A DNA stretch of 63,641 nucleotides, the filler included. It is 8 parts of 8 records of this genome, joined end to end, with 100 filler letters (N's around TTAATTAATTAA, not from the genome) between each part and the next. Parts side by side here need not be neighbours in the genome. Positions count along the whole stretch, not along the records: positions 52,725 to 58,469 come from SRR31156797_36008; 7 more parts are not named here. One strand, written 5' to 3'. The position numbers were made by a program, and so were the translations under genes. Below the pieces are notes generated by a model. The model had not been told where the DNA came from and searched no databases. It saw nothing but the letters and a program-made list of their open reading frames with translations. Below, in pieces: positions 1,215 to 58,569 of the stretch (positions within the stretch are counted from its first letter, which is position 1; each line of letters begins with the position of its first letter).

Positions 1215-3836
1215 CTATCTTTCCTTATATTCAGTCACAATCTGCTGCACACCATCTAAGCTCACAGGTAAATTCATTTTGCTATCAGCACCTTGAATCT
1301 TGCCATCACCAAGCAGACCAACAAACGGTTTCCACTTTTCCCCCCCCTGAGCGCGGACATCATCAATTATTTGCTCAAATATATCTCCGGCCAACTCTTC
1401 ACTTATTAACACAATGTCCGGTCTCAACAAAGAAACAGCCCGCAAACCTTTTTCAATTGTTTTACGGATGATCAAAGTAAACCCATTCCAGCGGGAAGAA
1501 ACCCCCCGCATTTCCTTAATATTCTCAAGATCTTCTTCAATGTATAAAAGAGTAGGAACCAGCTCAACCAAACCTTCCTGACCGGACAAATCATCCGCCT
1601 CGGCAACAAAAACTGGCATAGAAAGACTGAAGGTCGTCCCCCTGCCTTCTGCACTGGAAAAATCAATACTTCCGCCCATAGCCTCAACCAGCTGCTGGGA
1701 AATAGCCAACCCGATTCCTGTTCCCTCAATTTCAGAATCATTATCCACAAAACGACTGAAAGGCTTGAAGAGATCAGCGTGTCTCTTTTCTGGAATACCG
1801 ATCCCGCTATCAGTAATGGTCAACAGGACGTCTCTACCGCGATCAACACCTGAAATTTCAACCTTTCCACCCTCATGATTATATTTAATCCCATTTGAAA
1901 GGAAATTAAGAATCACCTGCTTAAACCTTGTCTTGTCCACATTAAGTTCAGGCAGGGAATCAACACTACTGTCAACGTGAATTGCAACACAGCTATCCAA
2001 GGCCTGTTGTTCCATAAGAGTAACAGACTCCCTTATGATTTCACCTACAGCAACGGATTCAAGGCTAATCGTAAAATTTCCGGATTCAATCTTTGAAAAA
2101 TCAAGGACTTCTGTAATCATATCTTTCAAATGATAGCCGGCAGCAGCAATGTGCTCCACATGAGATCGCATTTTTCCAGCTAAAACATCGTCGCTTAATA
2201 AAATATCGGAAAAGCCCACAATGGCATTGAGGGGAGTACGCAATTCATGGCTCATCCGGGATAAAAACTCAGATTTAGCTTTACTTGCGGAATCAGCAGA
2301 CTCAAGAGCATCCTTGAGCTGATCCTCCGCAGAAACCCTGTCGGTGATATCCACAAAATTCTCAAGCAAATAAATTTCATCTCCCCGCTTGAACGGCACA
2401 ACGCTTTTCAGAACCGATTTGCCGTTGGAAAGCCTGCGCACGGCATGGTCGATATCCTGCCCGAGATCCATAACCGGACACTTACCAACTTCTGCCGGAC
2501 AAATATATTTATGGCATACCGCCCCCAATGCCTCTTCACGGTTAACACCTATAAGTCGGGCTGCGGCTTCATTCATGTCCACAATGGTGTGAGCCTTGGC
2601 TGCAATGACAACAACACCTGCCTGCACCCCTTGCAAAACAGCATTGGTGTAATCCTGCTGCTCTTTGAGGCGTTTTTCCATCTCGATACGCTGACTGATG
2701 TCCATAAATGCTTCAAGCATTAGGCGCTCACCTGACAGGGTGATGTAAGCTGCGTTCTTCAGGACCGTAATACTCTTACCTCTGGCAGTCTTAACCTCCA
2801 CCTCACTCTCATGAGAGTCACCGATATTGCGTGAAAACGGACAAGCATGATCAGAGGAAAAACAGAAAACCTTATCACAACGATTACCAAGGACATTTTC
2901 CTCAGAATCAGCTTCAAAAAGACGTAAGGCTTCAGAATTGACTTTAATGACTTCCCTGTTCTCATTGACGATAACCATCCCGACCGGAATTGAATCGAGA
3001 ATAGTTTCAATGGCTGACTTGGCCTCTTCAAGGTTGCGGGCTTTAGATTCCCGGTCATCCAAAATGGAGCGAATATTAAAAATTATACGAAAGAAAATAA
3101 ATAGACAGAGCGGAATCGTGGCGGCCAACACCCCTAACCTTAAATTGTTCATTCCAGCAGAAGCTTGTTCTTTAAGCAAACTCAGCCGCTTTATTTCTAT
3201 CTGGGTCTCGTGAAAAATCTTGCTGGATGATTCTCTGGCCCGAAGAATAAGAGCTGCAATCTGCATGGCTCGAAAATTCAACACATCATGAACTTTTTCC
3301 AGCGAAGGACTGTCATCTGTGTTAAGCAGTTTTCGCAAAACAGAATAGATACCTTCTATAGCTACTTCCAGTTCAAAAACTTTGGGGTTCAGGTCGATAA
3401 CTTCCAAAACATATCCGGCACCTTTTTCCCTATGAAAGGAAATTTGCTCGTCAACTTCGTCTTTGTCGTAAAAGTTAGCAGGAAAACTGTTCTTGAAAGT
3501 CCCTCCAGCCTGCAAGACAGATAGAATATCTTCAAGCTTGCTAAGGCTGTGATTGATATCATTCTTGAAAACCTCAACCTTACGCAGGTCTGTGGTATCA
3601 GTCATCCTTGCGACACCAAGCTCCACCATAAGCAAACGGTGCATGATCGCCTTCCCCAACTCTGAACGGGCCTGTTGGTTCTCAATATCACGGTCATAAC
3701 GTTCCAGATAGTTCAGCTGCACCCTGTCCACGACATAGATCACTGCAAAAGAAACAAAAAAAATCAGACAAAGGAATAATACCTTGGAGATGACCTGTTC
3801 CTTGAGCAAGCCGGAGAGCTTATTATTTAACATCAT
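1215..3836 (-). CDS. Membrane hybrid sensor histidine kinase (2 TM, periplasmic domain, 2 PAS, HisKA, HATPase, degenerate REC)
   Basis: H-box SRMSHELRTPLNAI, N-box NFLSNGIKY, DSGIGI and GTGIGLAI; its stop abuts the start of the HD-GYP gene. Confidence 0.92.
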   Translation of the reverse strand: MMLNNKLSGLLKEQVISKVLFLCLIFFVSFAVIYVVDRVQLNYLERYDRDIENQQARSELGKAIMHRLLMVELGVARMTDTTDLRKVEVFKNDINHSLSKLEDILSVLQAGGTFKNSFPANFYDKDEVDEQISFHREKGAGYVLEVIDLNPKVFELEVAIEGIYSVLRKLLNTDDSPSLEKVHDVLNFRAMQIAALILRARESSSKIFHETQIEIKRLSLLKEQASAGMNNLRLGVLAATIPLCLFIFFRIIFNIRSILDDRESKARNLEEAKSAIETILDSIPVGMVIVNENREVIKVNSEALRLFEADSEENVLGNRCDKVFCFSSDHACPFSRNIGDSHESEVEVKTARGKSITVLKNAAYITLSGERLMLEAFMDISQRIEMEKRLKEQQDYTNAVLQGVQAGVVVIAAKAHTIVDMNEAAARLIGVNREEALGAVCHKYICPAEVGKCPVMDLGQDIDHAVRRLSNGKSVLKSVVPFKRGDEIYLLENFVDITDRVSAEDQLKDALESADSASKAKSEFLSRMSHELRTPLNAIVGFSDILLSDDVLAGKMRSHVEHIAAAGYHLKDMITEVLDFSKIESGNFTISLESVAVGEIIRESVTLMEQQALDSCVAIHVDSSVDSLPELNVDKTRFKQVILNFLSNGIKYNHEGGKVEISGVDRGRDVLLTITDSGIGIPEKRHADLFKPFSRFVDNDSEIEGTGIGLAISQQLVEAMGGSIDFSSAEGRGTTFSLSMPVFVAEADDLSGQEGLVELVPTLLYIEEDLENIKEMRGVSSRWNGFTLIIRKTIEKGLRAVSLLRPDIVLISEELAGDIFEQIIDDVRAQGGEKWKPFVGLLGDGKIQGADSKMNLPVSLDGVQQIVTEYKER

Positions 3837-4626
3837 ATAATCCGTACTTATTAAATATAGCCCTGCCCTCTACGCTTGACGCATACTCCATGAAAGCCTT
3901 GGAGATCTCAGGGTAACGGGAAAACCTAAGCAATCCGATTATTAATTTCTTTTTTCCGGCATATTTATCCCTGATCGGCAACACACTTAAACTATCACTG
4001 TTTTCCGGCCAAGTGGAAGTGGCATACCAGTTAATAACAAGATCCGCCTCGTTATCCTTAAGAACCCGGGCAAGATCTTTTGAATCCGTAGTCATCATCT
4101 GCACGTTTTCCGCAACCTGAGTAAATATCCCCTTTTTCGTCAGTATTTTCTCTGTCTCCCGTCCAATACTGCCGCTTTCAGGATTACCGATCACCACATA
4201 ATAAGTATTGTCGGCCATACTATCGAGATTAGCAGGAATATTCTTGGGATTACCTTTTTGGACCATCATTGCAGCCTTATTAAATCCCACATGGACAGTA
4301 TCCGTAACCAACCCCTGCTCGAGACAAGCCTGAATATATGATCCGGAACCGGGCAGATAGAGATCACCTATCTGATTAGCTTTAATAGATTTTAAAAGAT
4401 TACCTGACCCACCCTTGGTTATCAGCACCGTGCAATCATACTGCTGCTCAATAATACCCGCTATCTCGGTCATGGGCTTGATCATGGTAATACCGCAATA
4501 GATCAACAGTTCTTTTTGAGGCTCAATTTTCTGCTGCTGACACCCGGAAATTAAGAATAAACCCAGCAGTAGAAACGCAGTTATAACAGATAGATAAATA
4601 TCATTAATTAGCTGACGAAATTTCAT
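3823..4626 (-). CDS. ModA/WtpA-like periplasmic oxyanion-binding lipoprotein
   Basis: Lipobox ISGC; YCG.TM..P, GGSGNL, GDLYLPG and IGNPESGSIG motifs typical of the molybdate-binding SBP family; overlaps the kinase start. Confidence 0.8.
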   Translation of the reverse strand: MKFRQLINDIYLSVITAFLLLGLFLISGCQQQKIEPQKELLIYCGITMIKPMTEIAGIIEQQYDCTVLITKGGSGNLLKSIKANQIGDLYLPGSGSYIQACLEQGLVTDTVHVGFNKAAMMVQKGNPKNIPANLDSMADNTYYVVIGNPESGSIGRETEKILTKKGIFTQVAENVQMMTTDSKDLARVLKDNEADLVINWYATSTWPENSDSLSVLPIRDKYAGKKKLIIGLLRFSRYPEISKAFMEYASSVEGRAIFNKYGLYDVK

Positions 4627-4821
4627 TTAACTTTCCCTGATTCAATTTTGTATATGTTAATCTAAACATGCCATATCATCACATAAATTTGAATCAATTA
4701 TTGAGATTCATACCTGCACAAAAAACTTGCTTTTATCCATTCCATAAGGCACTCAACCCGCGGCGTCAGTAGCACGCCTGATCCACGCAACCATAAACAT
4801 CTCACCTCGAGGCCAATCACC

Positions 4822-5103
4822 ATGGACAAACATCCCAAGGACTGGCGATTTGTACAGGCTAACAAAGAAGCCCTGCTCACTCTGGGAGCCTACGCCCTTT
4901 ACTTTATCTGGTGGTACGCTTGTGCCTACGGCATGGGCAGCGGAGACCCCGACCAGTATGAATATGTATTCGGGCTGCCGGAATGGTTTTTCTACAGCTG
5001 CATTGTGGGCTACCCGCTCATCACCATCCTGCTCTGGGTACTGGTTAGATTTAAATTTAAAGATATGCCCTTGGATGAAGAGATTGAGGAGGAACAGTCA
5101 TGA
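4822..5103 (+). CDS. yhdT: YhdT/DUF997 small membrane protein
   Basis: RFVQANKEA...GLPEWFFYSCI motif, two TM helices, ATGA overlap with panF as in the known yhdT-panF pair. Confidence 0.9.
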   Translation: MDKHPKDWRFVQANKEALLTLGAYALYFIWWYACAYGMGSGDPDQYEYVFGLPEWFFYSCIVGYPLITILLWVLVRFKFKDMPLDEEIEEEQS

Positions 5104-6572
5104 GCACAACAATGATGACCGTCATTCCTGTAGTTCTTTATCTGGCAATGTCATTCGGCGTTGCTCTCTGGGCACGCAAAAAAGGCGAGTCCACAACCTC
5201 CTCCAAAGGCTTTATCGAAGATTATTTCATCGGCGGGCGTTCAATGGGCGGCATGGTGCTGGCAATGACCATTATCGCCAGCTACACCAGCGCCAGCAGC
5301 TTTGTGGGCGGTCCCGGAGTGGCTTACAAGCTCGGCCTTAGCTGGGTTCTGCTGGCCATGATTCAAGTTCCGACGACGTTCCTGACCCTTGGGATCCTCG
5401 GTAAACGGTTCGCCATTATGGCCCGCAAAACCGACTCCGTAACTATCACCGACTTCCTGCGCGCCCGCTACAAAAGCGACGCCGTGGTTATCCTCTGCTC
5501 CGTAGCCTTGATCGTCTTTTTCATGGCAGCCATGCTGGCCCAGTTCATCGGCGGGGCAAGGCTCTTCCAAACCGTTACCGGATATCCATACATTGTCGGC
5601 CTCGTGCTCTTCGGGGTCAGCGTGGTTCTTTACACCGCCATCGGCGGATTCCGGGCAGTAGTACTCACAGATGCCATTCAGGGCATTGTCATGGTTGTGG
5701 CTGTAGTGGTTATCCTGCTGGCAGTCATTAATGCGGGCGGCGGCATGGAGAAATGCATCCAGTCCCTGAAAGCCATTGATCCCGGCCTGATCACCCCCAC
5801 TGGACCGAAGGATGCTGTACCGCAGCCCTTCACCCTTTCCTTCTGGGTACTGGTAGGTATCGGTATTCTAGGGCTGCCCCAGACCACCCAGCGCTGCATG
5901 GGCTACCGTGATTCTAAAGCAATGCATGATGCCATGATCATCGGCACCCTGCTCATCGGCTTCATGATTCTCTGCGCCCACCTTGCCGGAACCCTCGGAA
6001 GGGCAATCCTTCCCGAACTCCCGGCAGGCGACTTGGCTATGCCCTCGCTCATCGTAGAACTGCTCTCCCCTGTCTGGGCCGGAGTATTCATTGCCGGACC
6101 GCTGGCTGCCATCATGTCCACCGTGGACTCCATGCTCCTGCTGGTCTCCGCTGCAATCATCAAAGATCTCTACATCCACTACCGCCTCAAGGGTGATGCC
6201 TCTCGCATGACTCTGGTCAGCCTAAAAAAAATGAGCCTGATCTGTACTGTAGTTGTTGGCTTGATGGTCTTTGTAGCCGCCATCGAGCCACCTGATCTAC
6301 TGGTCTGGATCAACCTTTTTGCTTTCGGTGGACTGGAAGCAGCCTTCCTCTGTCCCATTGTCATCGGGCTTTACTGGGATAAAGCCAACTCCACTGGAGC
6401 TATATCCTCCATCGTCATCGGCGTGGGAACCTTTATTGTGTTGACCATCATGAAGCCTGCCATGGGCGGTGTACATGCCATTGTGCCTACAACACTGGCT
6501 TCGCTGACCGCCTTTGTTCTCGGTTCATATGCCGGACTCTCCAAAACAAGGAGCAGGCAAACTCCAGCTTAA
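5100..6572 (+). CDS. panF: Sodium/pantothenate symporter
   Basis: SSS-family motifs YFIGGRSMGG, SASSFVGGPG and AAIMSTVDS; multi-TM; paired with yhdT. Confidence 0.9.
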   Translation: MSTTMMTVIPVVLYLAMSFGVALWARKKGESTTSSKGFIEDYFIGGRSMGGMVLAMTIIASYTSASSFVGGPGVAYKLGLSWVLLAMIQVPTTFLTLGILGKRFAIMARKTDSVTITDFLRARYKSDAVVILCSVALIVFFMAAMLAQFIGGARLFQTVTGYPYIVGLVLFGVSVVLYTAIGGFRAVVLTDAIQGIVMVVAVVVILLAVINAGGGMEKCIQSLKAIDPGLITPTGPKDAVPQPFTLSFWVLVGIGILGLPQTTQRCMGYRDSKAMHDAMIIGTLLIGFMILCAHLAGTLGRAILPELPAGDLAMPSLIVELLSPVWAGVFIAGPLAAIMSTVDSMLLLVSAAIIKDLYIHYRLKGDASRMTLVSLKKMSLICTVVVGLMVFVAAIEPPDLLVWINLFAFGGLEAAFLCPIVIGLYWDKANSTGAISSIVIGVGTFIVLTIMKPAMGGVHAIVPTTLASLTAFVLGSYAGLSKTRSRQTPA

Positions 6573-6721
6573 CCGGACTGCGACAGCTATATCCACTATC
6601 CCGAAACAGGGCCGACATGCTTTCGTAACAAAGATAACGTAATTGCTAACTGCGAAGCATGTTTGGAAATAACTGCCACTAAAGACAAAAGCCCTCCAGT
6701 CCGGGCACAGGAGTAATTGAT

Positions 6722-7390
6722 ATGGATATGCACCATCCTCTGAAAGTATATGAAGAGGAACTTGCCGACCTTCAGGGACTTGTCCTTGAACTCGGTAATC
6801 TGGCACTTAAGCAGTTGAACAAGGCTATTAAGACTTTTGAGGAGAATGATCCCGAGAGAGCGGAAGCGATCATTAAAATGGACGAAAAAATCAACGATCT
6901 TGAACATGAAGTGGACAAAATGTCCCTGATGATCGTGACTAAAATGGAGCCTAAAGCTGGTGATCTACGTTATGTCCTGACAGCCAGCAAAATCGCCTCC
7001 GACCTTGAACGTATTGCTGACTATGCCAAAAGCATTGCCAAGAAAGGCAAACGCGGATTTGCTGAAGAACACGCCCAGCATCTGGGCTATGTCCAGCACA
7101 TGGGTCAGGAATTGAACGCCATGCTTTCCAGTATCCTTGAAGCATTCAAAGAACTGAGCGTGGAAAAGGCCCTTGATGTCTGGCACAGCGATAGCAATGT
7201 GGATGCCCTGTTCAAAGAAGGTGTAACCGGTATGAAAGACTGCGTGGAGGCTGAAGACCTTGAAGGTAAAGGTTTTATCTCCCTGCTTTTCACCATGCGC
7301 TGTCTTGAACGTGTCGGCGACCATATCACCAACATTGCCGAGCATATCTATTTTATTAAATATGCGGAGTATTTTGCCGGAAAAAAATAG
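6722..7390 (+). CDS. phoU: Phosphate signalling complex protein PhoU (stand-alone)
   Basis: Two PhoU repeats, DLERIADYAKSIA and LERVGDHITNIAE. Confidence 0.92.
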   Translation: MDMHHPLKVYEEELADLQGLVLELGNLALKQLNKAIKTFEENDPERAEAIIKMDEKINDLEHEVDKMSLMIVTKMEPKAGDLRYVLTASKIASDLERIADYAKSIAKKGKRGFAEEHAQHLGYVQHMGQELNAMLSSILEAFKELSVEKALDVWHSDSNVDALFKEGVTGMKDCVEAEDLEGKGFISLLFTMRCLERVGDHITNIAEHIYFIKYAEYFAGKK

Positions 7391-11648: not shown

Positions 11649-11748
11649 NNNNNNNNNNNNNNNNNNNNNNNNNNNNNNNNNNNNNNNNNNNNTTAATTAA
11701 TTAANNNNNNNNNNNNNNNNNNNNNNNNNNNNNNNNNNNNNNNNNNNN
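11649..11748. other. Artificial contig linker
   Basis: N-run + TTAATTAATTAA (stop codons in all six frames) + N-run, 100 nt; composition and gene content change across it. Confidence 0.99.
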
Positions 11749-22080: not shown

Positions 22081-22180
22081 NNNNNNNNNNNNNNNNNNNN
22101 NNNNNNNNNNNNNNNNNNNNNNNNTTAATTAATTAANNNNNNNNNNNNNNNNNNNNNNNNNNNNNNNNNNNNNNNNNNNN
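22081..22180. other. Artificial contig linker
   Basis: N-run + TTAATTAATTAA + N-run. Confidence 0.99.
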
Positions 22181-30043: not shown

Positions 30044-30143
30044 NNNNNNNNNNNNNNNNNNNNNNNNNNNNNNNNNNNNNNNNNNNNTTAATTAATTAAN
30101 NNNNNNNNNNNNNNNNNNNNNNNNNNNNNNNNNNNNNNNNNNN
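30044..30143. other. Artificial contig linker
   Basis: N-run + TTAATTAATTAA + N-run. Confidence 0.99.
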
Positions 30144-39157: not shown

Positions 39158-39257
39158 NNNNNNNNNNNNNNNNNNNNNNNNNNNNNNNNNNNNNNNNNNN
39201 NTTAATTAATTAANNNNNNNNNNNNNNNNNNNNNNNNNNNNNNNNNNNNNNNNNNNN
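39158..39257. other. Artificial contig linker
   Basis: N-run + TTAATTAATTAA + N-run. Confidence 0.99.
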
Positions 39258-45881: not shown

Positions 45882-45981
45882 NNNNNNNNNNNNNNNNNNN
45901 NNNNNNNNNNNNNNNNNNNNNNNNNTTAATTAATTAANNNNNNNNNNNNNNNNNNNNNNNNNNNNNNNNNNNNNNNNNNNN
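45882..45981. other. Artificial contig linker
   Basis: N-run + TTAATTAATTAA + N-run. Confidence 0.99.
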
Positions 45982-52624: not shown

Positions 52625-52724
52625 NNNNNNNNNNNNNNNNNNNNNNNNNNNNNNNNNNNNNNNNNNNNTTAATTAATTAANNNNNNNNNNNNNNNNNNNN
52701 NNNNNNNNNNNNNNNNNNNNNNNN
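52625..52724. other. Artificial contig linker
   Basis: N-run + TTAATTAATTAA + N-run. Confidence 0.99.
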
Positions 52725-52877
52725 AAACCGGGCCGGATAAATCAACAGGGTGAATCCAAATGAATGCTCAAAGGATCCATGCAAATTTCAAAACTATGAC
52801 AGCCAAATCCAGGCTATGGAAAGCAGATTCCACTACCTTTAACCCTAAGAATCAACACAGAGTCTTCGACCCGGTTA

Positions 52878-52960
52878 GTGTAACCAAAAAGTTAGAGCGG
52901 CCAAATTAACAGCCGGGCAATTTTGCGTTCCAGGCTTGGCCGCTCAACTTAATGAGGACG
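52878..52960 (+). repeat. attC-like imperfect palindrome (degenerate integron cassette site)
   Basis: GTGTAAC, then AAGTTaGAGCGGCCAA ... TTGGCCGCTCAACTT (15 bp with one unpaired base); the expected GTT of the R' box is absent. Confidence 0.5.
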
Positions 52961-53104
52961 CCGGGTGAGGGATGAACAATCGATTGACGATATGTTACCG
53001 CTGCACATATGTAAGATAGTGAGTTAAATATTAAAATGAGTAACTCAAAAGAATACAAATAGTAATTGAGAATATGTAAATTCAATCTGATTTGAAGGAA
53101 TGTA

Positions 53105-56100
53105 ATGCCACACTATAGAAAAACATTTCGCCTCTTTGTCAGCTCCACCTTTTCGGATATGCAGGAAGAACGTCATGCCCTGCAAAAGAATGTCTTTCCA
53201 AGGCTTGAAGAGTTATGTCGGGAAAAGGGGGCTAAGTTCCAGGCCGTTGATCTGCGTTGGGGGGTAAATGAGGAATCCCAGTTAAACCAAAAGACCATGG
53301 ACATTTGTCTGAACGAAATTAGCCGATGTCAGAAAATTTCGCCCAAGCCAAATTTTATTGTTCTCCTGGGCGAACGCTATGGCTGGCAGCCGTTACCATA
53401 CAGGATTCCTGAAGAAGAGATGATAAAAATCTTAACAGTAGCCGGTGACGATGGGAAGTTGCTTGCCACCTGGTACAGACTGGATGAAAATGCTGTTCCG
53501 TCGAAATATATCCTCCAGCCCAGAGGTGCAGAACATAATGAATATGAGACCTGGGCTCCGGTGGAACAGTTACTGCTGAGTGCGTTGCGTTCAGCAGTCA
53601 ATAAACTTTCTTTCTCAGAAAAACAGCGGATTAAATACTTCACCTCCGCCACCCACCAAGAGATCATGGATGGTGCCCTGCAACCTCCTGGTAAGCTGGA
53701 ATACCACCCCAGAGAGCATGTATTTGCCTATCTGCGTAAAGTGACCAACCCACCGGAAAATAATACTAAATATGAAAAAAAATGGCGGGATACTGACCCC
53801 AACAGCCAGGAAATGCTGCGTACACTGAAAGATCAATTAGAAGGTGAACTCAAGGACCATTGTTCAGCTTATTCCGCCTACTGGACCGACAACAAAATTA
53901 CCCCGAAGAGTATTGATGATTTTACCAACAAGGTTTTTACCGACCTGTCTGCAATAATCAGTGATCAATTGCGGGAAGCTATTTCCGAAGATGAGCTTGT
54001 CGATGAGATTAGCAACCATCGAAAAGTCAGGCAAGAACTGGTTCGACACTTTACCGGTAGAAATGATGAGTTGGATACTATCAGTTCATATCTTTGTGAC
54101 ACAAGCAAAAGGAAGGTTTTAAGCTTAATCGGTGCATCAGGCTCTGGCAAGTCTTCGGTATTAGCCCAGGCCATTGCTGAGGCCGAACAAGGTGGATTAC
54201 CGGTCACCTATCGATTTATAGGGACTTCATCGCTTTCTTCAAATGTCGTTAACATGCTGCAACTCCTTTGCCAGGAGATTGCCACCTCCTTTGGCAAGAC
54301 CATTGAGTCTCTATTGGAAGATAGCGATGAACAGGATATGTCTGAGTTGGCAGGGCTGCAGAAAATTTTTTCTAAATGTATAGCCCTGGCGAATCGAGAG
54401 CGGCCCATCACTTTATTCCTTGATGCTTTGGATCAGCTTTCTGATTTAGAAGCAGATGATCGTCTGAACTGGCTGCCCCAAGAACTCCCCGCCCATGTCA
54501 AACTCATTGTCTCAGGGTTGCCAGAGTTAGAAGTCGAGCTATCCGCCACTGAGATCCACCATTTGCCTGGTCTGCCAACCCAGGATGCTCAAATCCTCCT
54601 GGAACGCTGGCTTACAGCTATCAACCGCACTATCACAAAAAAACAGCAAAAGGAAATTATTGAAAAATTTGCCTGCAATGGCCTGCCAATCTACCTCAAA
54701 CTCGCCTTTGAAAGGGCCAGCACCTATCACTCCTATACCCCTGTCGAACCGTTACCGGATAATGTTGCCGGAATCCTGGATAGCTGGCTAACAAAGCTAG
54801 AAAATGAGCACACCAAAATCCTGGTAAACAAGATTTTCCTGTTTATGCTTTGCGGTAAATACCAAGGGCTTACTGAGGATGAAATCCTTGATCTGCTGGT
54901 CTTTGATGAAGAATACTGGCAGGCTTTTTTGAAATCCTGCCATCCCGATCACCGATCTGATGTTGAGACTGCAAGACAAATGCCCATTGTGGTCTGGTCC
55001 AGACTCTATCTTGACCTGGAACCTTATCTTACTGAACGTAATGCAGGTGGTGAAACTATTATTTGTTTCTATCACAGGCAGTTTAATGAATTGATTGGCA
55101 ATCTTCTGTTCTTCGAGGATAAAAGAATTTTCGGTCATAAAATACTTGCCGAGTATTTTAGGAATAGAGGGCTGTTTTCAGAAAAAAAGAGACTGATCAA
55201 TCCTGATATTCGAAAATTAGTTGAACAACCATTTCAACAAACAAAGGCCGGGATGTTGGATGAGGTAAAAAAGACTCTATGTGATTTGATATTTATTCAT
55301 GCAAAAATTAACGCAAATATGTTGTTGGAACTGCAGTCAGACTTCAGAATGGCTATTAAAGAAGCTGAAGAGAATATCAGTGCCAGCCATGAACTTGATA
55401 TTTTTTATCATGCGCTTATGCGTGATATGCACAAATTATTGATAGCGCCGAAACATTCATTTCAAATTATGTATAATGGGGTGTGGTGGGAAACTGGCGT
55501 TTCATCGAAGAAATTGGATCAATATAGAGAGAGATATTTAGAATCGGGCAATTTTTTATTAAAACAGTACAGAAAGCCTGAAATTATTAAGAGTAGCTCG
55601 ATATTAACATTGGCAGGACACACAGGAATGGTAAATGCCTGCACATTTTCACCGGATAGTAAAAAAATAGTTTCAGCCAGTGTTGATAACAGCATAAAAT
55701 TGTGGGATGCGGAAACCGGAACAGAGATTGCCTCTCTTGTCGGCCATACTAAGCAGGTAAATACCTGTGCCTTTTCACAGAACGGTAAAAGAATCGTTTC
55801 TTCTGGTAATGAGAATACCATCAAAGTGTGGGATGTGGAAAGAGGGGTGGAAATTACATCATTCAAACATGCTGATTATATATTATTCTGTGAATTCTCA
55901 CCCGATGGGAGAAAAATTGTTGCGGGTGGAGGCAATTCGATAGGAGATGATCCTGGTACGCTACGGCTGTGGGATACAGAAACCGGCCAGGAGCTCACTT
56001 CACTTACCGGGCATGACAATCCTGTGGAGTTCTGTACCTTTTCGTCAGATGGCAAAAGATTGATTTCAGGGAGTAAAAAAGGGGTGTTAAGAGGGCTGTG

Positions 56101-57688
56101 GGAGCTAAAACTATGGGATATGGACACTGGACAGGAAATCGATATCCTTAACAGTTTTACTGCCCAATTAACACCGTATGCATACTCCCCGGATTTAAAA
56201 AAAATGGTTTCGATTGTTGATGATACCAAACTAAAACTGTGGCACTTGGAAACCGGATTGGAGATTGCCACACTTTCTGGTCATGATGATCCAGTAAGGG
56301 CCTGTGCATTCTCACCAGATGGTAAAAAACTGTTTTCCTGCAGTCACGGTAATTCAGCCCATGAGAGCATCATAAATATATGGGATTCGGAAACCGGTCA
56401 AAAAATCGTATCTTTCAATAAGTGCAGTCAATATGGAAATTATACATTCTCACCAGATAGTAAAAAAATTATTTGTGAAAGATACGTTTGCGAAGATGAT
56501 GGCGAGTACAATGCACTGCAGCTTTGGAATATCGATACGGGAAATGAGATTACCAAACTCAAAGATCCTGGCTCTATATTTTCCTTCGCATTCTCGCCAG
56601 ACAGCAAAAAGTTTATTACCAGTGCCGATGATAACACCATAAAACTCTGGGATTCGAAAACTACTCGAAAAATTGCTTCTTATGCGATCGACACAGATAT
56701 TATGGGTACGGGTTATCATTCAATCGCTGGAAAAGGAATATTCTCTTGTGCATTTTCACCAGATGGGAAAAAAATAATTTCTGGCAGTTCTAATGAAATC
56801 ATAAAAATATGGGATACAGACACCGGCGATAGGATTTCTACAATTATTGAAGATAGTAATGTCTGTGTTTTTTCACCAGATGGTAAAACAATAGCCACCG
56901 GAGATGACAATAACACCCTAAACTTATGGAATTGGAAAGCCGGGCGTAAGATTAAGTCTTTTGAAGGCCATACTGAATACAAGTATAGTACCGTAGAATC
57001 TTGTGCTTTCTCGCCAGACGGTAAAAAAATCGTTTCTGGACATACTGATGGTAGCCTGAATTTACGAAATTCCAAAACTGGAGCAGAGATAGTACATCGT
57101 ACCGGTTGGGTAAACTCAATAAGAAACCTTTTAACACGTTCTAGGAATAAACCATCTAAAAATACCACAGCCTTTATCGGACACACAGGAAATATATGTG
57201 CCTGTGCATTCTCACCCGATGGAGAAAAAATAGTCTCTGGAGATGAGAATGGCACCTTAAAGATGTGGGATTCAATAACTGGACAGGAGATTGAATCTTT
57301 TATCGGGCATAATGATTATGTTAACGACTGTGCATTCTCACCAGATGGGAAAAGAATCGTTTCCGTGGGTGGGCATGATGACAGATTAAAATTGTGGGAT
57401 ACGGGAACCGGGCTGGAAATAACCACTCCCATGCATACTGATTATATGTCATTCTGCGTATTCTTTCCGGATGGTACAAAAATACTAACCGGAGGAGGAT
57501 CCCCCGGCAGTAATTCTAATACCCTGAAATTGTGGGACTCTGAAACAGGGGCGGAAATTGTCGGTTTCCGCTTTTACACGGACTACCTTTTAAGATCATG
57601 TGATATATCTCCATGTGGCAAAATAATTGCTTGTGGAGATGATGATGGAAATTTTTATTTGTTAAAAATTGAAGGATTGGAAAAATGA
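53105..57688 (+). CDS. NLR-like STAND protein: DUF4062 - NACHT - helical domain - 15 WD40 repeats (NWD1/TEP1-like architecture)
   Basis: RLFVSSTFSDMQEER, VDLRWG and LLGERYGW; Walker A GASGSGKS; Walker B LFLDALDQL; GLPIYLKL; FYHRQF; repeated GH...CAFSPDG...LWD. Confidence 0.92.
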   Translation: MPHYRKTFRLFVSSTFSDMQEERHALQKNVFPRLEELCREKGAKFQAVDLRWGVNEESQLNQKTMDICLNEISRCQKISPKPNFIVLLGERYGWQPLPYRIPEEEMIKILTVAGDDGKLLATWYRLDENAVPSKYILQPRGAEHNEYETWAPVEQLLLSALRSAVNKLSFSEKQRIKYFTSATHQEIMDGALQPPGKLEYHPREHVFAYLRKVTNPPENNTKYEKKWRDTDPNSQEMLRTLKDQLEGELKDHCSAYSAYWTDNKITPKSIDDFTNKVFTDLSAIISDQLREAISEDELVDEISNHRKVRQELVRHFTGRNDELDTISSYLCDTSKRKVLSLIGASGSGKSSVLAQAIAEAEQGGLPVTYRFIGTSSLSSNVVNMLQLLCQEIATSFGKTIESLLEDSDEQDMSELAGLQKIFSKCIALANRERPITLFLDALDQLSDLEADDRLNWLPQELPAHVKLIVSGLPELEVELSATEIHHLPGLPTQDAQILLERWLTAINRTITKKQQKEIIEKFACNGLPIYLKLAFERASTYHSYTPVEPLPDNVAGILDSWLTKLENEHTKILVNKIFLFMLCGKYQGLTEDEILDLLVFDEEYWQAFLKSCHPDHRSDVETARQMPIVVWSRLYLDLEPYLTERNAGGETIICFYHRQFNELIGNLLFFEDKRIFGHKILAEYFRNRGLFSEKKRLINPDIRKLVEQPFQQTKAGMLDEVKKTLCDLIFIHAKINANMLLELQSDFRMAIKEAEENISASHELDIFYHALMRDMHKLLIAPKHSFQIMYNGVWWETGVSSKKLDQYRERYLESGNFLLKQYRKPEIIKSSSILTLAGHTGMVNACTFSPDSKKIVSASVDNSIKLWDAETGTEIASLVGHTKQVNTCAFSQNGKRIVSSGNENTIKVWDVERGVEITSFKHADYILFCEFSPDGRKIVAGGGNSIGDDPGTLRLWDTETGQELTSLTGHDNPVEFCTFSSDGKRLISGSKKGVLRGLWELKLWDMDTGQEIDILNSFTAQLTPYAYSPDLKKMVSIVDDTKLKLWHLETGLEIATLSGHDDPVRACAFSPDGKKLFSCSHGNSAHESIINIWDSETGQKIVSFNKCSQYGNYTFSPDSKKIICERYVCEDDGEYNALQLWNIDTGNEITKLKDPGSIFSFAFSPDSKKFITSADDNTIKLWDSKTTRKIASYAIDTDIMGTGYHSIAGKGIFSCAFSPDGKKIISGSSNEIIKIWDTDTGDRISTIIEDSNVCVFSPDGKTIATGDDNNTLNLWNWKAGRKIKSFEGHTEYKYSTVESCAFSPDGKKIVSGHTDGSLNLRNSKTGAEIVHRTGWVNSIRNLLTRSRNKPSKNTTAFIGHTGNICACAFSPDGEKIVSGDENGTLKMWDSITGQEIESFIGHNDYVNDCAFSPDGKRIVSVGGHDDRLKLWDTGTGLEITTPMHTDYMSFCVFFPDGTKILTGGGSPGSNSNTLKLWDSETGAEIVGFRFYTDYLLRSCDISPCGKIIACGDDDGNFYLLKIEGLEK
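55610..57670 (+). repeat. WD40 repeat array, 15 units counted by eye
   Basis: Recurrent FSPDG/S and (L/I)W(D/N); DNA core TGTGCATTCTCACCAGATGG recurs with small changes. Confidence 0.88.
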
Positions 57689-58251
57689 CAATACGATCAG
57701 AAGATAAAATACATCGCACTTTTGTAGGTTCCAGTTTTTTGTTTGCTTTATTTATTTCAATTACTCTTTTTTTCTTTAATAAAGAGCTGCATAATATTGT
57801 CAGCACATATGTCGATGAAAATGTCATTTTTTGGACTCTATTGTTGGGGGGTCCATTGTTTGTCATCTTTCCTTTAGGTGGATGGAAATATTGGCGAAAA
57901 TATGATGGATTATTCTTGATATTCTATTACCTTGGAGAAATATATCCTTCTCAGCTTATCGGTACGACGGCTTTATTTGTAATTAATGCAATAAAATATA
58001 AATATGGATGTCCGACATGGGTTTTTACAGCAGTCGTTTTAATTGCATCCCTCACTCATCTTGTAAGTAATTCAGACAATTGCCCCATATGCAACAAACC
58101 GTTAAGCATTAAAACCGGCAGAGACATGTCTTTTGGCCAATTATTTGATTGGTGTCACGTTGATTGTCCGTGGTGCAAATTCAAGATCCGTACAAATACT
58201 TGGGAGGAGGCACAAGCTCATCTTAAAAAATTAAGGGCCATGAAAAGCTAA
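57685..58251 (+). CDS. Hypothetical membrane protein (about 4 TM) with C-terminal Zn-ribbon-like motif
   Basis: Hydrophobic segments, then CPIC...CPWC; ATGA overlap with the NACHT gene stop. Confidence 0.75.
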   Translation: MTIRSEDKIHRTFVGSSFLFALFISITLFFFNKELHNIVSTYVDENVIFWTLLLGGPLFVIFPLGGWKYWRKYDGLFLIFYYLGEIYPSQLIGTTALFVINAIKYKYGCPTWVFTAVVLIASLTHLVSNSDNCPICNKPLSIKTGRDMSFGQLFDWCHVDCPWCKFKIRTNTWEEAQAHLKKLRAMKS

Positions 58252-58291
58252 ACTTTATAAAAAAAGCTGGGGCTAAAGAAAAAGGGCGTAG

Positions 58292-58469
58292 CCAGCTCAC
58301 GGATCACTGCATTGGCGGACAGCCAACCCCTTGGGACAGGCTCCTGATCCCCATGAGCCGACATACGGTGGCAAGCCGCCCCGTCGATGTGAACTCTTGG
58401 GGGCGGCCTGTTATATCCCCGGCAACGACAGCGTACCTCTTATCCGTTGAGCGACGGCCCTTCCATTCA
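58292..58469 (-). rRNA. Degenerate fragment of 23S rRNA domain V (peptidyl-transferase region)
   Basis: Blocks CCAGCTCACG, CCCTTGGGAC, ATGAGCCGACAT, CCGTCGATGTGAACTCTTGGG and TTATCCGTTGAGCGACGGCCCTTCCA match the 23S reverse complement, separated by indels. Confidence 0.8.
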
Positions 58470-58569
58470 NNNNNNNNNNNNNNNNNNNNNNNNNNNNNNN
58501 NNNNNNNNNNNNNTTAATTAATTAANNNNNNNNNNNNNNNNNNNNNNNNNNNNNNNNNNNNNNNNNNNN
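58470..58569. other. Artificial contig linker
   Basis: N-run + TTAATTAATTAA + N-run. Confidence 0.99.

Follow-up and report, generated by a model that had tools for sequence, protein, structure and literature searches.

The window studied here, a stretch of 63,641 nucleotides composed of eight contigs, carries on the contig at positions 52725-58469 a receptor gene (53105..57688, plus strand; 1527 amino acids) and directly after it a smaller partner gene (57685..58251, plus strand; 188 amino acids). The receptor consists of a NIR (DUF4062) domain, a NACHT-type STAND NTPase, a helical and winged-helix region and 15 WD40 blades, and the partner of about four membrane helices followed by a C-terminal zinc ribbon of the C4 type. 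Judged from its sequence, the receptor adds a new member to the NLR-like proteins that carry a NIR domain, and the locus is probably best explained as a single-chain NIR-NACHT-WD40 NLR-like defence NADase with the partner as an accessory tether or regulator. A preliminary description of this DNA had reported a reading frame of 1527 codons and a second one overlapping it in ATGA, and both were found at the positions that it gave.

The N-terminal TIR-like NIR domain (residues ~6-295; 53120..53989, plus strand) was delimited with a Pfam match, a match to a crystal chain and an AlphaFold2 model. Pfam family PF13271 (DUF4062) matches receptor residues 9-95 with 45.4 bits against a cutoff of 24.7, and residues 6-104 match 11gz_A, the crystal chain of the DUF4062 domain of human TEP1, at an E-value of 3.3e-15. 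The AlphaFold2 model of residues 1-330, made with 66 sequences, reached a pLDDT of 88.9 and a pTM of 0.82. Foldseek gave no match of this model to the PDB at E<=0.001, and an exhaustive VIA-align search gave the TIR domain of RPS4 as the best match, with a Z-score of 10.6 and a root-mean-square deviation of 4.1 over 147 residues. Further matches were TIRAP (Z 10.1), MAL (10.0), RPP1 (9.9), MyD88 (9.8), a nucleoside deoxyribosyltransferase (8.6) and the TIR domain of SARM1 (8.4), and named TIR proteins occupied 10 of the top 11 rows. According to the model, then, the receptor N-terminus has a TIR-like (flavodoxin-type) fold.

The putative catalytic glutamate of this domain is E186 (codon 53660..53662, plus strand), proposed from conservation and alignment. 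It closes the motif S181-A-T-H-Q-E186 and is located at the start of a helix of residues 182-192 in the AlphaFold2 model. In the form S181-A-T-x-Q-E186, the S, A, T and E are invariant in 121 of 121 aligned N-termini, namely the receptor and the 120 listed homologues to which the motif and tail counts given here refer. The family profile aligns the motif to 'SVTEME' of 11gz_A, with E186 opposite the second E at chain position 115, and this position was equated with TEP1 E1008 from the construct numbering 895-1113, with a tolerance of +/-1. Because the aligned stretch scores weakly, at 0.8 bits, and the link to E1008 depends on construct numbering, the identification of E186 as the catalytic glutamate is probable, not certain. 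A single-sequence search with residues 140-310 against the PDB gave no TEP1 match, and the catalytic stretch was reached by the family profile only. The catalytic glutamates given in the accessible parts of the 2026 DUF4062 preprints are E108 in PsAvs2, E97 in KpSwz and E1008 in TEP1. Compared with the TEP1 crystal construct, the receptor family has an insertion of ~70 residues ahead of the catalytic helix (residues 105-175; 53417..53629, plus strand). It contains a conserved WYxLDxNAxP motif and the invariant residues W123, Y124, D127, N129 and E154, and was predicted to form two helices and a beta-hairpin.

The NACHT-type P-loop NTPase module (residues 316-505; 54050..54619, plus strand) contains a Walker A motif, GASGSGKS, at residues 343-350 and a Walker B motif, LFLDALD, at residues 437-443. 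The residues G343, G346, G348, K349, D440 and D443 are invariant across 32 aligned homologues. In Pfam the module scored above the cutoffs (in brackets) of AAA_16 with 49.2 bits (32.6), of NPHP3_N with 46.1 bits (24.8) and of nSTAND1 with 28.2 bits (27.1), and no solved NTPase was matched by sequence. The helical and winged-helix region that follows (54620..55585, plus strand) includes FYHRQF at residues 655-660, with F655 and the winged-helix H657 invariant in the same 32 homologues, and LCDLIFIHAKI at residues 725-735; its Pfam matches were weak (HTH_NWD1, E 4.8e-4; APAF1_C, E 0.01). The WD40 sensor region (residues 828-1527; 55586..57685, plus strand) matched Pfam WD40 at E 3.4e-94 and Beta-prop_TEP1_2nd at E 2e-53. 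Its 14 'LWD'-type blade ends and a terminal blade amount to 15 blades, by sequence enough for two propellers, and the chain stops directly after the last blade without a C-terminal tail. The receptor domains are thus as the preliminary description had given them, with a DUF4062-type domain, a TIR/nucleoside-deoxyribosyltransferase-like fold, intact Walker A and B motifs, the helical linker LCDLIFIHAKI and 15 WD40 repeats, and the NIR, NTPase and winged-helix motifs are intact.

Proteins of this kind have been described recently, and the following is taken from the accessible parts of the papers cited. DUF4062 was renamed NIR and presented as a TIR-like NADase that acts as the effector at the N-terminus of NLR-like defence proteins of bacteria (Le Mouellic et al., bioRxiv 10.64898/2026.09.04.749371). 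The same preprint reports NAD+ depletion and glutamate-dependent phage defence for PsAvs2 (NIR-STAND-TPR), Vulcan and Vesta, and finds the NIR domain also in NWD1, NWD2, TEP1 and TTC41. The Swarozyc system, the NADase activity of TEP1 with its E1008 and the structure PDB 11gz come from Osinski et al. (bioRxiv 10.64898/2026.05.01.722283), who propose for TEP1 that signal sensing by WD40 leads to NACHT oligomerisation, upon which the TIR-like domain becomes active. The products of the characterised NIR domains are ADP-ribose and nicotinamide, and TEP1 forms no further ADP-ribose derivatives (bioRxiv 10.64898/2026.09.04.749371, 10.64898/2026.05.01.722283). Ibarra-Chavez et al. (bioRxiv 10.64898/2026.06.25.731849) mention 'bacterial TEP1-like proteins' that contain NACHT and WD40, a class which the preprints leave uncharacterised, and the TEP1 NACHT clade was reported to be acquired from bacteria (Kibby et al., bioRxiv 10.1101/2022.07.19.500537). 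The latter authors divide the C-termini of bacterial NACHT proteins into repeats, transmembrane segments, short extensions and zinc ribbons (ZnR). Lastly, Apaf1-like WD40 sensors are included in a STAND catalogue (Nature 2026, PMC13581612).

The receptor shares with PsAvs2 and the other NIR defence proteins a NIR head with a conserved glutamate, a STAND NTPase in the middle and a repeat sensor at the C-terminus, all in one chain. The NTPase of PsAvs2 is of the Avs2 type and its sensor, which detects the phage terminase, is TPR-like, whereas the receptor has an NTPase of the NACHT/NPHP3_N type and 15 WD40 blades; the NIR insertion of ~70 residues, the coupled gene for a membrane zinc-ribbon protein and the lack of a PADLOC Avs match further set the receptor apart. 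With human TEP1 and the bacterial TEP1-like proteins it has the order DUF4062-NACHT-WD40 in common, and with TEP1 also the SxTxxE motif. In contrast to TEP1, it contains neither TROVE nor vWA, has a much longer insertion after strand C, ahead of the catalytic helix, and is encoded in a prokaryotic operon. NWD1, NWD2 and Apaf-1 resemble it in that they combine an effector or adaptor at the N-terminus with a STAND NTPase, a helical domain like that of Apaf-1 and double WD40 propellers. They differ in the CARD and the NB-ARC NTPase of Apaf-1, and NWD1 and NWD2 are NADase-inactive in vitro. The bNACHT proteins (10.1101/2022.07.19.500537) and those of the STAND catalogue (PMC13581612) are, like the receptor, bacterial NLR-related proteins of the NACHT clade; neither a NIR head nor a separate gene for a membrane zinc-ribbon protein occurs in any of the named tested bNACHTs in the text available, and the supplementary tables may list such forms. 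The preliminary description had already compared the domain order with that of NWD1/NWD2 and TEP1, and the same order is reported in the 2026 preprints.

From these characterised relatives, on which each of the following steps is modelled, a most likely mechanism can be proposed. The receptor would rest as an auto-inhibited monomer, in line with the ligand-released auto-inhibition of Apaf-1 that serves as a working model (bioRxiv 10.64898/2026.05.01.722283). The WD40 propellers would bind a phage protein or one derived from the infection, and nucleotide-dependent oligomerisation via the NACHT module would gather the N-terminal NIR domains, which would then hydrolyse NAD+ and cause abortive infection. 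The partner, on the reading given below, would tether the receptor to the membrane or regulate it. By analogy with the PsAvs2-type proteins, NAD+ depletion and abortive infection are the expected output. WD40 sensing followed by oligomerisation and activation of the N-terminal domain had also been suggested in the preliminary description, and it agrees with the TEP1 model of Osinski et al. As to the further remark that the pairing was not recognised as a named system, the receptor kind, with its architecture and likely mechanism, is already in print in the 2026 texts accessible; no description of a receptor paired with a membrane zinc-ribbon protein was found in the literature searched, and one may nevertheless exist.

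The small gene is co-oriented with the receptor gene and translationally coupled to it. The receptor stop and the partner start share an ATGA overlap, and a Shine-Dalgarno-like GAAGGA (57671..57676, plus strand) is located within the end of the receptor gene, 8 nucleotides ahead of the partner ATG at 57685. A frameshift split of one longer gene was considered and ruled out by a stop codon in the partner frame 4 codons upstream of its ATG; since the frame is closed there, the partner has an open reading frame (ORF) of its own and does not continue the receptor in a shifted frame. The membrane part of the partner (residues 12-127; 57718..58065, plus strand) was defined by hydropathy, with windows of at least 1.6 at residues 11-32, 46-66 and 109-127, and a weaker fourth membrane segment at ~75-101 was seen by eye in the sequence. 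The zinc ribbon contains C133, C136 ... C161, C164 (CPIC...CPWC; 58081..58176, plus strand). The protein of roughly four transmembrane segments with CPIC/CPWC that had been described before is therefore recovered as to the cysteine pairs and three strong segments, while the fourth segment is weak. Its sequence points to an inner-membrane protein of ~4 helices, of which the zinc ribbon is probably cytoplasmic, because the N-terminus is positive and the number of helices is even.

The partner had no Pfam, NCBIfam or PADLOC family above cutoff, no family in PHROGs (one match at E 0.009) and a best score of 0.84 in the ESM Atlas, which is under the usable level. A word-indexed search scored 0 of 123 candidates, and no copy was found in viral contigs. 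A HMMER pass over 1.84 billion representatives yielded two remote relatives only, of 252 and 256 amino acids (E 5e-8 and 4e-5, 26% identity). Both retain PLGGWK and CPxCN...CxxC, and the four cysteines are invariant in the three-member alignment. One of them was traced to a genome, a Hyphomicrobiales metagenome-assembled genome (L001, 9992-10762, plus strand), where it is encoded between a Sel1-repeat gene and efp. The partner is a real gene, since it has a Shine-Dalgarno-like motif, an ATGA overlap and an ORF of 188 codons at 35% guanine-plus-cytosine (GC) content, and its relatives keep its motifs; it is nearly an orphan, though, and untied to the receptor elsewhere.

What connects the partner to the receptor is a zinc-ribbon tail that recurs in the receptor family. 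A search in which 8000 candidates were scored gave at least 1873 receptor homologues at the threshold of E<=0.001, the best being 58% identical over residues 1-830. Plasmids contributed two records, which match the DUF4062 part only, and metagenome contigs only 2 loci, of 36-37% identity. In the closest listed homologues of full length, the consensus runs past the last blade into CxxCG...CPxCxxxLxxNPF. A regular expression for the fused tail (CxxC...CPxC...NxF) was matched by 33 of the 120 listed homologues, 24 in a long and 9 in a short form; the remaining 87 fail the expression, and by eye a few of these, e.g. P0035, P0095 and P0113, have variants. Among the 12 closest of the matches listed (P0003-P0014), 8 have the fused tail, which the receptor here does not have. 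The fuller motif is CxxCG ... LPxEAW ... CPxCxxxLxFNPF, besides which there is the short form, and the long and short forms are homologous (hhalign 98%). No Pfam model matched the tail above cutoff. In a model of the whole homologue P0101 (pLDDT 86.8, pTM 0.80), the tail residues 1001-1080 have pLDDT values of 81-94. By hydropathy only, the C-termini of P0024, P0104 and P0064 have membrane-like helices together with zinc knuckles, and that of P0056 has membrane helices only. The recurrent tail is not covered in the accessible parts of the NIR, NACHT and STAND literature searched.

The ribbon of the partner family resembles this tail. Compared by hhalign, it matched the short tail with a probability of 51.6% (P 1.5e-4) across both knuckles and the long tail with 57.6% and one knuckle aligned. 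As a control, reversed tails gave 3.7% and 0.4%, and none of 40 column shuffles with the cysteine columns fixed reached the score of the real alignment (28.1; best shuffle 20.6). In a phmmer search of the partner against the 120 listed tails, the 8 best matches were all ribbon tails. A complex prediction of the WD40 region (828-1527) with the partner ribbon (124-188), in which no alignments were used, scored 0.00 in both runs and is evidence neither way. On the strength of the recurrent fused tail and of the sequence likeness we propose, tentatively, that the partner may well be a trans-encoded, detached and membrane-anchored counterpart of the fused zinc-ribbon tail of the family. If so, this favours a role as an accessory membrane tether or regulator over that of a separate killing effector. 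The preliminary description had left a choice between effector, anchor and guarded partner; the fused tails of the relatives favour anchor or regulator and speak against effector. A bolder version, which we consider doubtful, is that an undescribed zinc-ribbon module exerts control or sensing in the NIR-NACHT-WD40 family and has here moved to a four-helix inner-membrane protein, giving a membrane-stationed two-component NLR.

Short proteins that match the tail profile exist as well: 56 were found (P0132-P0187), of 42-109 amino acids, 41 of them starting with M. Many begin within the linker ahead of the tail and lie on short contigs, and because they are possibly fragments or miscalled pieces, they were not counted as detached tails. 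One of them, P0186 (70 amino acids), has the first NIR residues joined straight to the last part of the tail and looks like the product of an internal deletion. The tail profile found nothing in viral contigs. Another candidate for a detached tail, of the long type, was found on a metagenome contig (L002), where a tail-less receptor homologue (2829-7043, 36% identical) overlaps by ATGA an ORF of 97 amino acids (7040-7333, plus strand) with at least 8 cysteines in CxxC-like pairs. The likeness is at motif level, and homology of this ORF to the tail is not claimed, because hhalign against the tail profile gave only 1.3%. After this ORF, a gene for a TPR protein with a strong Shine-Dalgarno motif follows at ~7367.

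Several observations weigh against the explanation preferred here, and those that concern the partner give room to a simpler alternative, in which the receptor is an NLR-like NADase encoded by a single gene and sufficient by itself, and the 188-amino-acid gene is an unrelated, sporadically distributed passenger that is co-transcribed with it. The partner family is tiny and patchy, with its two remote relatives among 1.84 billion representatives. The relative in L001 stands in a non-defence setting among GAPDH, Sel1-repeat and EF-P genes, in a genome in which a search with this receptor found no homologue of it, and among the 151 genomes of its order it occurs in its own only. The GC content of the partner gene (0.353) is below that of the receptor gene (0.42), and overlaps of four bases are frequent where genes run in the same direction, even unrelated ones. 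The pair of receptor and partner was found nowhere else. Of five homologous loci with readable downstream DNA, a count that excludes L003 (which ends inside the gene) and L004-L008 (which are too short), three (L009, L010 and L011) have no coupled small gene downstream. As to the ribbon itself, no pairwise match of the partner among the 120 listed tails was better than E 0.11, zinc ribbons of such short length can arise by convergence, no sequence similarity was detectable between the membrane part of the partner and those of the fused tails, and the 97-amino-acid ORF of L002, besides its low score against the tail profile, has no similarity to the partner. Against a passenger, the zinc ribbon is found exactly where 8 of the 12 closest listed relatives carry a fused one, its profile similarity to the tail is above the controls, and a second tail-less homologue, that of L002, has an ATGA-coupled cysteine-rich ORF too. 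We therefore take an unrelated passenger seriously but regard it as unlikely. In either case, the receptor and partner are not a conserved two-gene system, because the partner has only two remote relatives and the genome of the one that was traced has no receptor; together with the three uncoupled loci, this leaves the two-gene immune system of the preliminary description unsupported in the form given there.

Other observations that count against the preferred explanation concern the receptor. The Pfam NACHT family (PF05729) scored 25.3 bits, slightly below its cutoff of 26.7. PADLOC 2.0 gave no match of the receptor to an NLR or Avs (Avs1-5) model, only to HEAT-ARM_XIII in the WD40 part and weakly to mad8. 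The absence of a PADLOC hit, which the preliminary description had wished to count as support for novelty, was indeed observed, but it is uninformative on that point because the library dates from 2023, before the description of NIR. Defence-island context is absent from the 5.7-kb receptor contig, the other contigs of the window being unlinked and of housekeeping content, and no defence test of this NACHT-WD40 clade was found in the accessible NIR, NACHT and STAND literature.

On another reading, the receptor is a signalling or housekeeping NTPase switch, not an anti-phage protein, with an inactive or regulatory NIR domain; such a role may hold for the eukaryotic NWD1 and NWD2. The lack of defence context on the contig and the non-defence neighbours of the homologues in the genome loci L009 and L010 are in keeping with it. 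So is the report that full-length human NWD1, NWD2 and NPHP3 are NADase-inactive in vitro and only TEP1 is active (bioRxiv 10.64898/2026.05.01.722283). We nevertheless consider such a switch improbable, as every NIR, NTPase and winged-helix motif is invariant across the family and NIR genes are reported to adjoin defence genes more often than expected (20.0% vs 3.9%; bioRxiv 10.64898/2026.09.04.749371). The distribution of the family also argues against it. Homologues are patchy, with 4 of 401 sampled Pseudomonadota genomes. On a contig of a viral collection (L011, 7245-11033 and 11090-15178), a receptor homologue, which breaks off within near-identical WD40 repeats, lies between purA and a gene for a D12 adenine methyltransferase that is followed by phage tail and baseplate genes. 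This region may be the edge of a prophage.

A different division of labour would make the partner the killing effector, opened or inserted by the activated receptor or by the NIR product, so that it depolarises the membrane. Four hydrophobic helices in a small protein that is translationally coupled to a sensor would fit this, and membrane effectors are common in abortive-infection systems. The receptor, however, already has an intact effector domain with a putative catalytic glutamate, the known NIR domains yield ADP-ribose and nicotinamide, with no further derivatives from TEP1, as far as the accessible reports go, and no recognisable nucleotide-sensing domain was found in the partner with Pfam, PADLOC and NCBIfam. 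Moreover, the fused relatives carry the ribbon or membrane module at the sensor end of the chain. A killing role of the partner thus seems very improbable, and a tether or regulator is preferred.

Upstream of the receptor gene is an AT-rich leader (52980..53104, plus strand; GC 0.28), as the preliminary description had noted, with a Shine-Dalgarno-like GAAGGA at 53094-53099, 5 nucleotides ahead of the ATG. A scan for the sigma-70 consensus found no site in the leader at 52980-53104. An imperfect hairpin of ~62 nucleotides with one bulged base (52889..52950, strand not assigned) lies 155 nucleotides upstream of the receptor gene. Its arms include perfect matches of 10 nucleotides at 52895-52904 and 52936-52945, and as DNA it folds with -19 kcal/mol (z -3.0), equalled by 1 of 200 shuffles. 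The triplets of the hairpin read 5'-GTT...AAC-3' on both strands, and attC core sites have the order RYYYAAC ... GTTRRRY. That this stable bulged hairpin with its GTT/AAC triplets is an attC site, as its first label, attC-like, would suggest, and marks the two genes as an integron gene cassette is most implausible, since the triplets are reversed relative to the attC order, the site is a single copy in the window, Rfam gave no match and no integrase is present on the 5.7-kb contig, which is too short to judge the presence of one nearby.

The contig contains exactly these two genes. The final 204 bases (58266-58469, minus strand) match domain V of bacterial 23S ribosomal RNA (Rfam model positions 2430-2648) with 69.9 bits, with a 9-nucleotide insertion and several deletions within universally conserved stretches. 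The GC content there is 0.60, against ~0.42 for the contig, and the match stops 15 nucleotides past the partner stop codon; this contig end is either a degenerate ribosomal RNA fragment or an assembly chimera. The eight contigs of the window measure 5.1-11.6 kb and are joined by seven N44-TTAATTAATTAA-N44 linkers (11649-11748, 22081-22180, 30044-30143, 39158-39257, 45882-45981, 52625-52724 and 58470-58569). Since they are separate contigs with GC contents of 0.42 to 0.55, gene neighbourhood across the joints is meaningless and the contig of the receptor and partner is without usable neighbourhood. The remaining contigs, unlinked to it, encode housekeeping functions, with two-component regulators and thiamine, glycogen, Tad-pilus and glutamine-synthetase genes.

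The receptor can be seen as the prokaryotic equivalent of three human proteins, TEP1, NWD1 and NWD2, for which neither trigger nor role is clear as yet. With head, switch and propellers in common, a tractable copy from bacteria could reveal which ligands the propellers bind and how oligomerisation switches on the NADase. Should the partner be a passenger only, the locus would be an ordinary member of the family described in 2026. The zinc-ribbon tail is nevertheless recurrent: most of the close listed relatives have it fused, a few combine it with membrane helices, and here it appears to be detached. As a tether or gate of the receptor, it would be an extra control element in NLR-like immunity, and if the locus were indeed a membrane-stationed two-component NLR, its NADase would fire at the membrane or from it, for instance when a phage enters or in response to events at the envelope.

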